Source of the DNA: Eledone cirrhosa
Taxonomy: Eukaryota
Direction: 5' to 3'
Length of the DNA stretch: 64,000 nt
NCBI GenBank assembly: GCA_964016885.1
Contig: OZ024745.1
Location: 35,836,001 to 35,900,000 of the forward strand
In this document: positions 13,205 to 63,594 of the stretch, in pieces
How the letters are laid out: each line of letters opens with the position of its first letter
Position numbering within the stretch: position 1 is the first letter of the stretch
Notes under the pieces: model-generated
Database searches by the model: none
Seen by the model: only the letters and a program-made list of their open reading frames with translations
What the model was told of the DNA's origin: nothing
Translations under genes and position numbers: made by a program

Positions 13205-13765
13205 TAAGAGACGTAAAATAAGAAAATTATAAAATTAACTTACTTACTAAAATATCACTTCCAACTAATTAGTTTCTGGAATGGAGTAAATATGGTACGG
13301 TTGTAGGCAGGCCGCTGTCTTATTAGCAGACCACTTTCCACTGATTGACCTCGATGTCACGTGTTCGATTCTTTTTGAATTTGCCACAGATAGTGATTTT
13401 TTCAATTGCTTGGAATTCAGTCCACGCTTTGCTATTTCCTATCCACTGAATTATTTTTTAATAAGTTTCCAGTGTCCTCGCTTTGCATGGAAACCTACAT
13501 GAGAATAGACATTCCTGACGACGGAATGCTTCTCTATATTATTCTTCGGAAAATATATTTACTCCATTCCAGAAACTAATTAGTTGGAAGTGATATTTTA
13601 GTAAGTAAGTTAATTTTATAATTTTCTTATTTTACGTCTCTTATATTATTGTTCTGCAACCCCATGCATTGAACCACACTGTTATTAAGACAAAACCTAT
13701 ATATTTGCTAGCATTGATATGCATCTGTATGTATATATATGTTACTAGATATGAATTCTTTATTA
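13205..13765 (+). mobile_element. Asymmetric fold-back PLE-type terminus with HHR
   Basis: Perfect ~88 bp inverted repeat 13205-13292 vs 13555-13642; the right arm continues to TA near 13765 and the left arm abuts (TA)n. Confidence 0.8.
13512..13589 (+). ncRNA. Type I hammerhead ribozyme
   Basis: TTC-CTGACGA-cGGAATG...CATTCCa-GAAA-CTAATTAG-TT^GGAA: core boxes, 6-bp stem II, palindromic stem III (AACTAATTAGTT) and a short stem I. Confidence 0.7.
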
Positions 13766-14008
13766 TATATATATAGAAAGGATAAAAAGGACGATTGATT
13801 ATTCCTTCATTGCATTTATTGATAGGTGACGCACGTTTCGCCACTGATCAGCTCAAGGTTAGATCTCTCTCTCTCTCTCTCTCTCTCTCTCTCTCTCTCT
13901 CTCTATATATATATATATATATATATATAGTGGTAGAACACTGGAAGGTAATATACGTAGTAGGACGAGTTAGGTAGAAGTGGTTACACAACAGTTAGTT
14001 CACCATAC

Positions 14009-14046
14009 CGAGAACAATTGTTTCACCTTAGCGGATCCTCAGCTCG
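14009..14046 (-). ncRNA. Minimal type I hammerhead ribozyme (mutated twin at 15313-15349 +)
   Basis: Minus strand reads CGAG-CTGAGGA-tCCgctaaGGt-GAAA-CAATTG-TT^CTCG; the plus copy has CTGAGTA and GACA substitutions. Confidence 0.8.
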
Positions 14047-14338
14047 TAATGGACATGGTTATACGGCACAGGAAGGGCAACCGTACGAACGTACATGCGC
14101 AGAAACGGTCAGTTCCCTCAGGCAATACTAAATTGCGTGCGAGAGGTGTAAGGGAGATAACTGCAAAAGTCAGAAAGTTTCTAGTTTATAAGAACATTAG
14201 GATGATGTTGTAGTTCAATCCGGAGCTTTGTAGTTATGTAAGAGGTGTTTCCATACTTGTGGACAACGTGTGAAGAATTCAAATCTTGAGTTTAGGCAAT
14301 CGCTATTGCGTAATCTCTTTAGAATATTTATTCGTTCA

Positions 14339-58741: not shown

Positions 58742-58790
58742 TTGCTTACAATTGTTTCCTCCAAACCGAGGTTTGGATTCTTCGGAGCAA
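58742..58790 (-). ncRNA. Type I hammerhead ribozyme (CCGAAGA core)
   Basis: Exact mirror of 61716-61764. Confidence 0.8.
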
Positions 58791-61715
58791 CTATTTAGTG
58801 ATCTATAACATAATTGACCTCCTTTCCAACACAAGAGACATATAAAACATATGCACATATTGATCCACAGTGGGATGACATCCATCAAAATGATATAGCA
58901 TGGCAATTTACATATAAAGGTTAAAGGATAAAAATAAAAATAAAAATATAAATAAAAATAAAAATAAAAATAAAAATAAAAATAAAAATAAAAATAAAAA
59001 TAAAAATAAAAATAAAAATAAAAATAAAAATAAAAATAAAAATAAAAATAAAAATAAAAATAGAAATAAAAATAAAAATAAAAATAAAAATAAAAATAAA
59101 AATAAAAATGAAGCATTGGCAGTCTATGAAGATAAAGCAAGAGGAAAGTTTAGAGTAGTCAGTGCATGAAACAATCTCACGTGTAGCATGCACGTGTGTC
59201 TTATTTTTACAGGATTAGAGTGCGTCAGAATGTTATTTGCAGGGTCAGGCAGTTGAAGCAGGCAATCGATATTATTATGTGGGCTGAATTATTAAATCAT
59301 TTATTCGCATACACCTGTATGATATACAGTCCCGAATGTAGAGAAACACCAAAATATCAAAAATTTCAAACATATAAACCGTATTATATCGTAGGCAAAA
59401 CAGTACCACTGTCTTCGCGCACACCACCACTCACATAATCCATGAGACGCAATATATAGAACACGGGTCTATCATATAATTCACGATGGTTCAGCATATA
59501 ACCAAGTTATAAACCGTATCTTGTCGATTCTTAATTAATAGATCATGTTGTTTAGTTTGGTGTGATGATATTATATTCCGGAAGTGTCTGTATGACCAAG
59601 GGGAATTAATGCGTAAGGGGAGGTAACTAGCTGGTTTTCTTAGTTAAATTTATTATCCTAAATTACATTAATGGTGTTTCAAATAAATGCCTATCAGTTG
59701 ATGTTATAACTAATTTCTAGATTATGTTACTTATTTATAGGTTACAGTGTTGTCTATTAAGAAGTACTAAGTTGTATATATCAGGATGATTACCTTCTAT
59801 TAAGGGGTGTCATATCTGAACATTCCATAAGAGGTGTCAGACCCCCAAATCAATGTTCTTTGTAAATGTAATTCCTCCCGCAGGACCTGGCATGGTCCTA
59901 TTATTATATATGACTGCCGGTAGGCTCTGGGTCATTGTATGTCTGAATCCTTGGTAAATCTGAATATCTTCAGGATGGTCCGGAGATCAAATTTCTCATA
60001 TAAAGACACCAGTCTGGCCATCAAGCAATAGATTACCTACCATCTCATATATAAATTAAATTAGGTATCTTATCTACAAATTAGAGTGGAGTATATTAAT
60101 AGGTACTAAAGGAGTTCATATCATGATGATTACAATCTGGAGATCAAATCTCTCATATAAGGACACCAGTCTGGCCATCAAGCAATACATAAACTCCCAT
60201 CTCACATATAAATTAAGATAGGTATCTTATCTACAAATTAGAGTGGAGTCTATTAATACGTACTAAAGGGGTTCATATCATGATGATTACAATCTAATAT
60301 GGAGTGCCACACCTGGGCAATCTATAAGAAGAGTCAGACTACAAAATTAATTATATGGGTCTCACTACTAATAATGGTCTTATTATCATACAAGACTCCC
60401 GGCAAGTTTCAGGTCATTGTATGACTGCATCCCCGGTAAACTCACCAGGGTGGTCCGGGGGCCAGTTCTCTCATCAAAAAATACCAATCAGGTCACCAAG
60501 CAACACAGAAACTCCTAACTCATGTATCACCTGTGCATAATTCATTGAACTGATCGGATAGAGTATATATACACATAACAATAAGATTACCTACTTAATC
60601 ATCAATCTATCTCATGGTGGCATTCCATGCACAGGATTATGTTATCACAACCAATACCGTGTCTACAGTTTATATTAAACATATATTTGTGCAATGCAGT
60701 TTAAGTAGTCCACGGCCGAGATATCAGAATTAGAAGTACATGGGGGTATCCCCAGGGTAGATGGTACTAAAATGCTGCCAGTATTACCCTTAGAGTATAA
60801 ATTAGTTATAACATCATATGATAGGCACTTATTTGAAACACCATTAATGTAATTTAGGATAATAAATTTAACTAAGAAAACCAGCTAGTTACCTCCCCTT
60901 ACGCATTAATTCCCCTTGGTCATACAGACACTTCCGGAATATAATATCATCACACAAAACTAAACAACATGATCTATTAATTAAGAATCGACAAGATACG
61001 GTTTATAACTTGGTTATATGCTGAACCATCGTGAATTATATGATAAACCCGTGTTTTATATATTGCGTCTCATGGATTATGTGAGTGGTGGTGTGCGCGA
61101 AGACAGTGGTACTGTTTTGCCTACGATATAATACGGTTTATAATATGTTTGAAATTTTTGATATTTTGGTGTTTCTCTACATTCGAGACTGTATATCATA
61201 CAGGTGTATGTGAATAGATGATTTAATAATTCAGTCCACATAATAATATCGATTGCTTGCTTCAACTGCCTGACCCTGCAAATAACATTCTGACGCACTC
61301 TAATCCTGTAAAAATAAGACACGCGTGCATGCTACACGTGAGATTGTTTCATATACTGACTACTCTAAACTTTCCTCTTGCTTTATCTTCATAGACTGCC
61401 AATGCTTCATTTTTAATTTTATTTTTATTTTTATTTTTATTTTTATTTTTATTTTTATTTTTATTTTTATTTTTATTTTTATTTTTATTTTTATTTTTAT
61501 TTTTATTTTTATTTTTATTTTTATTTTTATTTTTATTTTTATTTTTATTTTTATTTTTATTTTTATTTTTATTTTTATCCTTTAACCTTTATATGTAAAT
61601 TGCCATGCTATATCATTTTGATGGATGTCCATCCTCTGTGGATCAATATGTGCATATGTTTTATATGTCTCTTGTGTTGAAAAGGAGGTCAAGTATGTTA
61701 TAGATCACTAAATAG

Positions 61716-61764
61716 TTGCTCCGAAGAATCCAAACCTCGGTTTGGAGGAAACAATTGTAAGCAA
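61716..61764 (+). ncRNA. Type I hammerhead ribozyme (CCGAAGA core)
   Basis: TTGCT-CCGAAGA-aTCCAAACctcgGTTTGGAg-GAAA-CAATTG-TA^AGCAA: 5-bp stem I, 7-bp stem II and palindromic stem III. Confidence 0.8.
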
Positions 61765-63594
61765 ATAAATGATTTAAACTGAACTTTGATTATTGTAATC
61801 TCTCTCTCTCTCTCTCTCTCTCTCTCTCTCTCTCTCTCTATATATATATATATATATATATATATATATATATATATATATATATATATATATATATATA
61901 TGCATGGTACCATGGGCCCAGCACTATATGTCAATAATTGTCACAAGCGTAGTGTTTGTACCAGAGTTTTCAAGTCGCTGGCTGGACTAAAAAATCACAC
62001 TTGTTCAGCGCATCGGTAGGGGTTCTCCTACATGAATATAACGTAGTGGCCATACTCGAAAACAAGTTAGCAGCCACCATATATATATATATATATATAT
62101 ATATATATATATATATATATATATATATATATATATACCTAAAGATTGTGAGAGAGAACAAGAACCAAATAATGTATAGAGGAACGCAAAAATAGATAAA
62201 TGAATGACAAAAGAAAAACCAAGTAATATAAAAATATCTATTTACAAAAACAAAAAGAGAAACACAATCAGAATGACAGACACGGAACTGAAACGAAATG
62301 AACGAATGAAATGAATAAACAGAAGGAAGAGCTTACGTGTAGACGAGTTGGTAGTGGGTTGAAGAAAATCTAAAGAAAAACTATACCCATATATATATAT
62401 ATATATATATATATATATATATATATATATAAGCGGGAGGCAGACTAATACTTATGAGCTAGACATTCTGAGATCAAAAGATTTCTAGTGTAGTCATGTA
62501 GATTTGAACTTTTGTTTTTATTGTCAGCGTTTATGCAATGTCTTTTTCCGTTGTATGTGATATCGTCACGAACATTGATATCATAAATACTATTGCTAAG
62601 TCAGTATAACACCAATGTCTATTGTATATTGTGCTTACTGTATTCGCAATATGTTTATTTTGTGGATTTATATTATTCAAATCACATTCGTGTATTTATA
62701 TTTACATACAGTATCACGTAGCAAGAGGTAAAGACACGTACATACAAAAACCTAAGAAGAAACGCATGCACATACACATGTTTACTTGTAAATTAATGTA
62801 TTTCCATTTCAGTCATCGTATGTACACACAGACAGAGACACAGATAAAGACGCAGACATACACACATATGTGTGTATGTTTGTGTGTGTCTGTGTCTCTG
62901 TTTGTGTGTGTGTGTGTGTGTATGTGTGTGTGTGTGTGTGTGTGTGTGTGTGTGTGTGTGTGTGTGTGTGTGTGTGTGTGTGTGTGTGTGTGTGTGTGTG
63001 TGTGTACAAATATACATGCTTATTATAATAGATATTTTGAATGTATATCTATCTATTTAGATAACCGAAAGATTACAAACTCTTCTCTCACTTTATATCA
63101 ACACACCCGAAGTAACTCCTACTTCGTCTCCCCTCTCCCCAATCATATTGGAGGAGTGAATAAAATAGAAAGGGTGAGAAAATATTTGCGTATGTGTGTC
63201 TGTGTTGTATTTTGGTAGTCGCCTGGGCTGTCTGGTGTTCGGTGCCAAACAATACTTCCTCGCATGTAAGGTGACGTCAATGTACATCAGATAGGCTAGT
63301 TGTTCAACTATGACGCGCAAACATCACACACATTTCATCATAGGCTCGTTTCATGGAGGCTAATCTGTAGCTAAAGATCTAAGACGTAAACTCCTAGAAA
63401 TATCAGCCAAGTTCTCCGAGATCATAATGTAATGTGATTAACTAGGGAAGAACAAATTGGTAAATGTCATCTTATATCTACACAATATATATATATATTA
63501 TAAATATAAGCTATCGTCGTATTTTGACTAAAAAAAATTATTTAGCCTGATAGTGGGGTTAAGAACCCTCGGAGAAATGGAAAAAAGATGAGTA

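Follow-up and report, generated by a model that had tools for sequence, protein, structure and literature searches.

Palindromic insertions of Penelope-like elements

The window analysed here is a stretch of 64,000 nucleotides (nt) from the TA-rich, 3.0 Gb genome of Eledone cirrhosa (assembly GCA_964016885.1, contig OZ024745.1, positions 35,836,001 to 35,900,000, forward strand). Comparison of the window with itself reveals many local inverted repeats adjoining (TA)n, and these palindromes are head-to-head insertions of Penelope-like elements (PLEs) in (TA)n. Seven families are distinguished: A (19676, 25891, 46763 and 47019), B (13205), C (15383), D (41589), E (51110), F (41200) and G (61800). 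All seven possess a minimal type-I hammerhead ribozyme core with its helices, present whole or as its back half in each arm and reading outward; the core is a U3-A8 variant in A and F and is altered at U4 in G. Rfam at the gathering score gave no hammerhead match, and predicted cut sites were set from the type-I cores, a strict descriptor recovering family D only and the other families being placed by reading of the core. Further copies were collected from the same genome by similarity to the window copies (370 loci) and merged, together with the window, into 243 stretches totalling 1.7 Mb. L-numbers below label these sampled stretches, and C3 and C5 denote contigs, the window lying on C5. Loci of family M were left out of the tabulation of ends.

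Long copies encode a reverse transcriptase (RT) followed C-terminally by a GIY-YIG endonuclease (EN). Pfam identifies the GIY-YIG domain in family F (E 7e-8), together with an RVT_1 match (E 1e-4) below the cutoff. Inspection by eye identified motifs of RT and GIY-YIG type in long copies of A, C, D and G, and a GIY-YIG-type motif in the family C fragment of the window, for which Pfam gave no match. A CxCx5C linker is present in all four of these families; family G possesses RWK and DKT motifs and family C RWR and a DKT-like motif, while neither RWK nor DKT was seen in the truncated copies of A and D. The CxCx5C linker, RWK and DKT motifs and (TA)n targets are marks of the Hydra clade (PMC8557442), to which A, C, D and G probably belong. 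Translations of family F (L243 to L245) carry a CX4CxxC linker, a CCHH-type EN and DKG, and F probably belongs to the Neptune clade, whose marks are a CX2-5CxxC linker, a CCHH-type EN and DKG, in view of this linker, the DKG motif and the Pfam match. Pseudo-long terminal repeats (pLTRs) occur in partial tandem with an inverted copy, the arrangement being an inverted pLTR followed by pLTR, open reading frame (ORF) and pLTR in L211 (G), L243 (F) and L234 (C).

Families B and E are predicted to be non-coding. Family B consists of a 521-nt tandem unit, repeated up to 10 times, with a type-I hammerhead in each unit, and its window copy contains no ORF of 100 amino acids; judged by these non-coding tandem hammerhead units, it would be classed as a non-LTR retrozyme. 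Family E seems to be a short element that lacks coding sequence and starts at a defined 5' position. Family G is young despite the alteration of its core at U4, at least 40 matches being identical over 101 nt among the matches listed. Simple repeats are also found within elements, between ORF and hammerhead: (TA)n/(TG)n tracts in family D (L337/L338, C3:125643018-125649099) and an (ATAAAA)n tract in family G (window 58928-59109 and 61409-61578).

Two fixed end positions in each family

The arms of all palindromes named above share an orientation in which the 3' side of the element faces outward. Their ends were counted in nt past the predicted hammerhead cut, and each family has a near site (S) and a far site (L). 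The short arms of the window end at +15 to +22 in family A, at +36 to +38 in C (15381-15383), at +37 to +39 in D (about 41588), at +40 to +44 in G (61799-61803), at +52 to +55 in E (about 51110), at +56 to +60 in B (about 13205) and at +72 to +76 in F (about 41200-41204). The partner arms of these copies extend about 45 to 150 nt further. In the sample as a whole the typical S and L positions are 20 and 98 in A, 61 and 180 in B, 38 and 103 in C, 39 and 103 in D, 55 and 196 in E, 79 and 142 in F, and 44-49 and 212 in G, giving a one-sided tail of about 65 to 165 nt whose length is fixed within each family. Among the microsatellite-bounded ends of the seven families, 519 of 562 fall within 7 nt of S or L.

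The first-pass annotation of the window had placed the short ends 38, 40, 40, 53, 57 and 15-20 nt past the cut (C, D, G, E, B and A), which agrees with our measurements to within a few nt; its 70 nt for F is of the right order, a little below the measured range. It had also described partner arms tens to about 150 nt longer and an outward 3' orientation, had inferred two positions specific to each family, and had proposed a tabulation of end points over many copies. That tabulation yields a bimodal, family-fixed distribution rather than a random one.

The tails belong to the element and are not flanking sequence, since other genomic copies carry them; their recurrence rules out chance flank. 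Solo copies ending at S and solo copies ending at L both occur, the surplus of solo S copies in family D being partly an artefact of a microsatellite within the element and of a query that contained the short end. In reads of two other organisms, one contig each, family B stops in TA at 13763 or else runs through this position, so that site L of this family seems to be conserved.

Pairing of near and far sites

The sample, window included, contains 162 inverted, outward-facing pairs, of which 155 combine S with L, four combine S with an intermediate end, three are L+L and none is S+S. The script alone called 147 of the 162 as S+L; the other 15 were inspected by eye, and eight of them proved to be S+L pairs that contain a small deletion or a divergent tip, or in which an internal pLTR had been miscalled. 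Apparent S+S or L+L cases at L120 and L234 were grouping errors. Mixed pairs thus make up 155 of the 158 pairs in which both ends can be classed as S or L, whereas independent choice would yield no more than 50% (binomial p 3.6e-42).

The rule was recovered as well where no element served as query. A survey of 600 kb made in this way contains 20 pairs, 19 of them S+L. Scanning 664 kb without regard to family gave 112 inverted repeats, of which 83 have an arm flush with a microsatellite: 71 with one flush arm and an extension of 20-260 nt opposite, 9 with one flush arm and another distance, and 3 with both arms flush. The other 29 have no flush arm, and these counts stand without a shuffled null. 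All 18 inverted repeats that start in the window have the flush arm and the 20-260 nt extension. Adjacent arm pairs facing inward lack an intervening TA run in one of eight cases. The pairing of one short with one long arm is therefore confirmed as a real rule that holds beyond the window.

Position of the end sites on the template

Templates run past L in several families, as indicated by the tandem units of B and by pLTRs lying inside copies of G (L211), F (L243) and C (L234, L098); in family F (L243) a start codon follows L by 17 nt. S is internal by definition. Since templates of B, C, F and G read through L, both S and L are internal template positions in these families. The annotation had considered both outer ends to be RNA 3' ends: the 3'-outward orientation stands, and the idea that the template stops there does not, given this read-through.

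Neither of the two features that the annotation had connected with the ends selects them. The ribozyme cut is spanned by 299 of 324 arms, and only 2 of 324 start within 5 nt of it; cleavage is ruled out as the cause of the ends, and the cut serves merely as a landmark. Pairing with (TA)n fares no better as the chooser of sites. The sites in use offer about 2 to 6 nt of match to (TA)n, while longer TA-like runs of the template are almost unused (+113 and +147 in B, +15 in F, +154 in G), the exceptions near the runs of B being one pair ending at +119 and three ends at +155 to +157. As these longer runs are passed over, position rather than best pairing fixes the end sites, and best TA complementarity can be excluded as the selector. 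No target duplication is visible beyond the TA runs.

Relationship between partner arms

Among copies of families C and G, the 5' ends of the arms are spread across hundreds to thousands of nt. The junctions differ between copies, and the head-to-head joining suggested by the first-pass annotation is borne out as an event that takes place anew at each insertion. For 117 pairs of A, C, F and G the 5' reach of the two arms was compared: the short arm extends further in 34, the long arm in 18, the two are equal within 12 nt in 48, and 17 are unresolved. Family B pairs divide into 6, 8 and 1 for short arm further, long arm further and equal. Because the short arm exceeds the tailed arm on the 5' side in 34 of 117 pairs, each arm needs its own template. 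A long arm that starts at most 15 nt from S, or past S, is seen in 16 of 158 pairs, and the two arms of these pairs overlap little or not at all.

Partner arms have rare variants in common about four times as often as expected. In 114 pairs, 226 minority bases are common to the partners, against 59 expected; in 83 pairs an arm diverges less from its partner than from the median non-partner, and 14 pairs are tied. The effect on divergence is strongest in G and D; in family G, divergence is 0.6% between partners and 2.7% between non-partners.

The 5' truncations of short palindromes and solo copies cluster at about -70 from the cut in F, at about -33 to -47 in A and at about -84 in D, the last being also the end of the reference used. 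In A and D this spot follows a pyrimidine-rich tract ending in AG, similar to a splice acceptor, and may mark the boundary of an intron or the 5' end of an RNA.

Twin priming as the favoured origin

These characteristics are best accommodated by twin priming, in which the two target strands, each nicked, start cDNA synthesis on a single uncleaved RNA, the first at S and the second at L; we assign this reading a probability of roughly 0.6. The GIY-YIG domain would nick both strands of the symmetric TA run, and a geometry defined by protein or RNA structure, possibly that of an RT dimer, would set the two 3'-OH ends at S and L, where pairing would amount to only a few nt. The L-primed cDNA would then stall behind S or recopy the same template, after which the two cDNA ends would be joined head to head; solo copies would represent cases in which only one priming was completed. 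Long arms that stop near or before S, as in the 16 pairs above, are expected if the L-primed cDNA meets an S-primed copy on the same RNA. The PLE protein of an anole has been found in vitro to nick and extend both strands, to start internally at two sites bracketing the tail and to prefer uncleaved RNA, and is predicted to form a dimer (PMC11167929).

Several observations weigh against twin priming. The copies were chosen by likeness to those in the window. Among the pairs, two L+L cases are genuine (family A in the C5 stretch and family C in L235), a third (L224) is a mirror that includes its flanks, and four copies join S to an intermediate end. Read-through past L is shown for neither A nor E, and D offers at most one doubtful case. 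RNA folds show no common structure at S, and reads of four runs on 12400-16400 give no empty-site join. The 48 pairs with near-equal 5' ends and the 18 with a longer long arm, out of 117, could also arise by fold-back of a single cDNA. In family B the partner advantage in divergence is absent (0.021 vs 0.021), and the sharing of variants between arms could stem from conversion of one arm by the other or from the use of two RNAs with a common source locus. Finally, the start site is alike on both strands in the bulk in vitro data (PMC11167929).

Dinucleotide runs at the ends

Certain ends are associated with a second microsatellite. A (CT)n run lies between the CTCT of the element and the TA run at 20 of 36 short ends of family G and at none of its 24 long ends (p 2.4e-6), and (CA)n is found at 9 of 24 long ends of family D compared with 2 of 53 short ends. 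The CTCT inside long arms of G is expanded in 0 of 24 cases, and the short ends of G possess either 0-2 or 5-44 CT units, never 3-4. The flank opposite the short end of G has no CT run, so the run must date from the insertion or later; on the same ground, an origin from a compound target that was already present is disfavoured. These runs at specific ends hint at stutter of the polymerase, which we regard as a lead.

A wider proposal combines this stutter with programmed twin priming, in which one ribonucleoprotein with two RT sites would engage one RNA at two unequal fixed points. Hydra and Neptune elements and the parasitic non-coding families would then all normally yield S+L; the telomerase-related RT would add (AG)n or (TG)n to the TA primer at the start, and PLEs would be a builder of this genome's polar microsatellites, (CT)n(TA)n and (CA)n(TA)n. 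If this were true, a relative of telomerase would be tied to microsatellite growth. We hold the combined proposal to be doubtful. The polarity is genome-wide and the polar runs occur at host-side edges too, both of which argue against an RT-specific stutter: in 664 kb, 26 TA runs are preceded by at least 3 TC units and none by at least 2 GA units, (CT)n lying directly 5' of (TA)n 26 times and (GA)n never exceeding one unit. In the same 664 kb, runs of at least 3 units number 89 for (CA)n and 36 for (TG)n. An asymmetry between the 5' and 3' sides in the occurrence of AT beside (AC)n is known from human DNA (PMC509290).

Alternative routes to inverted, tailed copies

Next in order of survival is resolution by the endonuclease, an idea put forward for the tail in PMC8557442, according to which both strands start at L and the GIY-YIG enzyme of the element trims one end to S. 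Strict one-sidedness would follow, the few L+L pairs being untrimmed, and the EN of Drosophila Penelope is described as needing the tail to recognise and cut its own sequence (cited in PMC11167929). This route is improbable, however, as it does not predict long arms that halt between S and L (16 of 158), S solos are as frequent as L solos in several families, and RT starts in vitro fall on both boundaries of the tail (PMC11167929).

Fold-back self-priming, related to an antisense self-priming proposal (PMC3846280), supposes that a single nick-primed cDNA turns at its 3' end, copies itself and halts at S. It yields the head-to-head layout, near-identical arms and the small palindromes seen at some centres, and it fits the 66 pairs in which the arms are equal (48) or the long arm is longer (18). 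Yet 34 of the 117 short arms hold sequence missing from the tailed arm, which rules out fold-back as the only route; every short arm lacks the tail, 16 pairs scarcely overlap and S solos exist with no inverted partner, and we regard fold-back as a rather remote prospect. Somewhat less probable still is the existence of two RNA species from one source locus that end physically at S and L, each priming at its true 3' end. The sharp bimodality of the ends would be explained, and the single source locus could account for shared variants, but an extra rule would be needed against S+S and L+L, the anole PLE starts internally (PMC11167929), and the template extends past L in B, C, F and G. Inheritance of palindromes, in which an S+L master is transcribed across and copied whole with its asymmetry, agrees with the clustered and sometimes identical centres of short A (about -33 to -47) and F (about -70) copies and can nearly be dismissed, given the copy-to-copy variation of arm 5' ends in C and G and the F solos that start at the same position near -70, which point to a template boundary rather than an inherited join.

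Comparison with known systems

In LINE-1 twin priming both target strands prime one RNA, producing an inverted segment with outward-facing start points; the first primer is placed at the poly(A) end, whereas the position of the second varies and the segments are free of overlap. In the present families, by contrast, each of the two sites is internal and fixed, and overlap between the arms is usual.

Published EN-containing PLEs share with the present families the 5'-truncated inverted copy, the tail at one end, the pLTR hammerhead, (TA)n targets and partial tandems (PMC8557442, PMC3846280), the head-to-head inverted pLTR with a tail at one end being described in both reports. In these accounts the tail is optional or "often at one end" and 30-40 bp long, whereas here it reaches about 65-165 nt and S+L accounts for 155 of 162 pairs. 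Inverted tailed copies have been explained by EN resolution (PMC8557442) or antisense self-priming (PMC3846280), and their origin is called open (PMC8557442, PMC11167929). Poseidon from Anolis is alike in its two internal starts that bracket the tail, the nicking and extension of both strands, its AT-rich target and the dispensability of ribozyme cleavage (PMC11167929). That study, in the parts accessible, concerns one element in vitro with sites close together and does not address pairing per molecule, whereas the present evidence is genomic alone and covers Hydra, Neptune and non-coding families.

The minimal type-I hammerheads of PLEs have a short palindromic helix III and include the U3-A8 variant seen here in A and F (PMC4209133). 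Hammerhead pairs on opposite strands, 100-700 bp apart, are already known (PMC4209133; bioRxiv 10.64898/2026.07.22.740005). Family B, with its 521-nt tandem hammerhead repeat, is similar to the non-LTR retrozymes of the latter preprint, which names a rolling-circle route; the arrays of B end instead by the S+L head-to-head rule, and PLE-type integration therefore fits them better. Active Penelope families have been reported in an octopus (PMC13282606), the accessible text containing nothing on ends; PMC9977147 and PMC6431247 contribute nothing further.

A literature search, which drew mainly on openly accessible texts and left the tail-defining Penelope papers of 2004-2006 uncovered, returned no obligatory S+L pairing, PLE twin priming, tails of 65-165 nt, same-template evidence or use of such integration by a tandem ribozyme family. 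The inverted tailed layout and the two start sites are thus known, and the near-obligatory pairing and the tails of 65-165 nt appear to be additions. Near-obligatory pairing and the same-template evidence provide a per-molecule prediction for the existing in vitro system, and the behaviour of two start sites reaches beyond Poseidon with far wider spacing. PLE ends are not defined by hammerhead cleavage, and the S+L rule supplies correct boundaries for very abundant cephalopod-type repeats that resemble miniature inverted-repeat transposable elements.

Features of the window

Arms and associated runs of the seven families, and a solo element, in the window (window coordinates)
Feature	Position	Strand	Remarks
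Family B short arm	13203..13293	-	5'-truncated at about -30; cut after 13263; end at (TA)37
Family B long arm	13294..13763	+	core from 13515, cut after 13585; tail 13642-13763
Solo hammerhead element between B and C	13760-13929	-	(CT)20(TA)13 at 5' side
Family C long arm	13930..14612	-	cut after 14013; tail about 13930-13975, with a deletion of about 20 nt here
Family C short arm	14613..15383	+	further 5' than long arm; cut after 15345
Family C GIY-YIG-type fragment with CxCx5C linker	14858-15178		in short arm; motif by eye
Family A palindrome	19676..19863	.	long arm left, short right; back half of U3/A8 variant hammerhead
Family A palindrome	25891..26300	.	short arm left, long right
Family F long arm	39264..39510	-	paired part and tail 39264-39327; cut after 39405
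Family F short arm, paired part	41023..41203	+	cut after 41128; U3/A8 variant core
Family D long arm	41262..41455	-	cut after 41365; tail 41262-41325
Family D short arm	41466..41588	+	cut after 41549
Family A palindrome	46763..46958	.	short arm left, long right
Family A second palindrome, decayed	47019-47154
Family E long arm	50764..50975	-	cut after 50897; deletion of about 65 nt in tail here
Family E short arm	50982..51112	+	cut after 51057
Family G long arm	58550..59719	-	paired part and tail 58550-58702; cut after 58747
Family G short arm	60796..61803	+	cut after 61759; core altered at U4
(CT)20(TA)31 at G short end	61799..61901	+	CT run prolongs CTCT of element; candidate stutter product

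Further inverted repeats of the window with one flush arm and one extension are located at 3990-4673, 18046-18770, 23412-23776, 31050-31330, 38410-38545, 44976-46724 and from 63499 onward. The repeat at 44976-46724 has coding sequence on its minus strand (45500-46414) for a fragment with RT thumb, linker and GIY-YIG of Neptune type. Two tRNA-like heads, at 63596-63666 (minus strand) and 63871-63941 (plus strand), stand back to back in an inverted repeat with a one-sided extension, which is possibly a tRNA-headed parasite of PLEs. Families are inserted serially into the TA tails of one another, resulting in chains of unlike elements (window 41200-41647, L005 and L130). A near-perfect palindrome of another kind, at 31901-32701, is centred on a TA run while its ends lack TA, and a second near-perfect palindrome (L224:6420-8680) mirrors its flanks too; both may represent either secondary inverted duplication or an assembly artefact.

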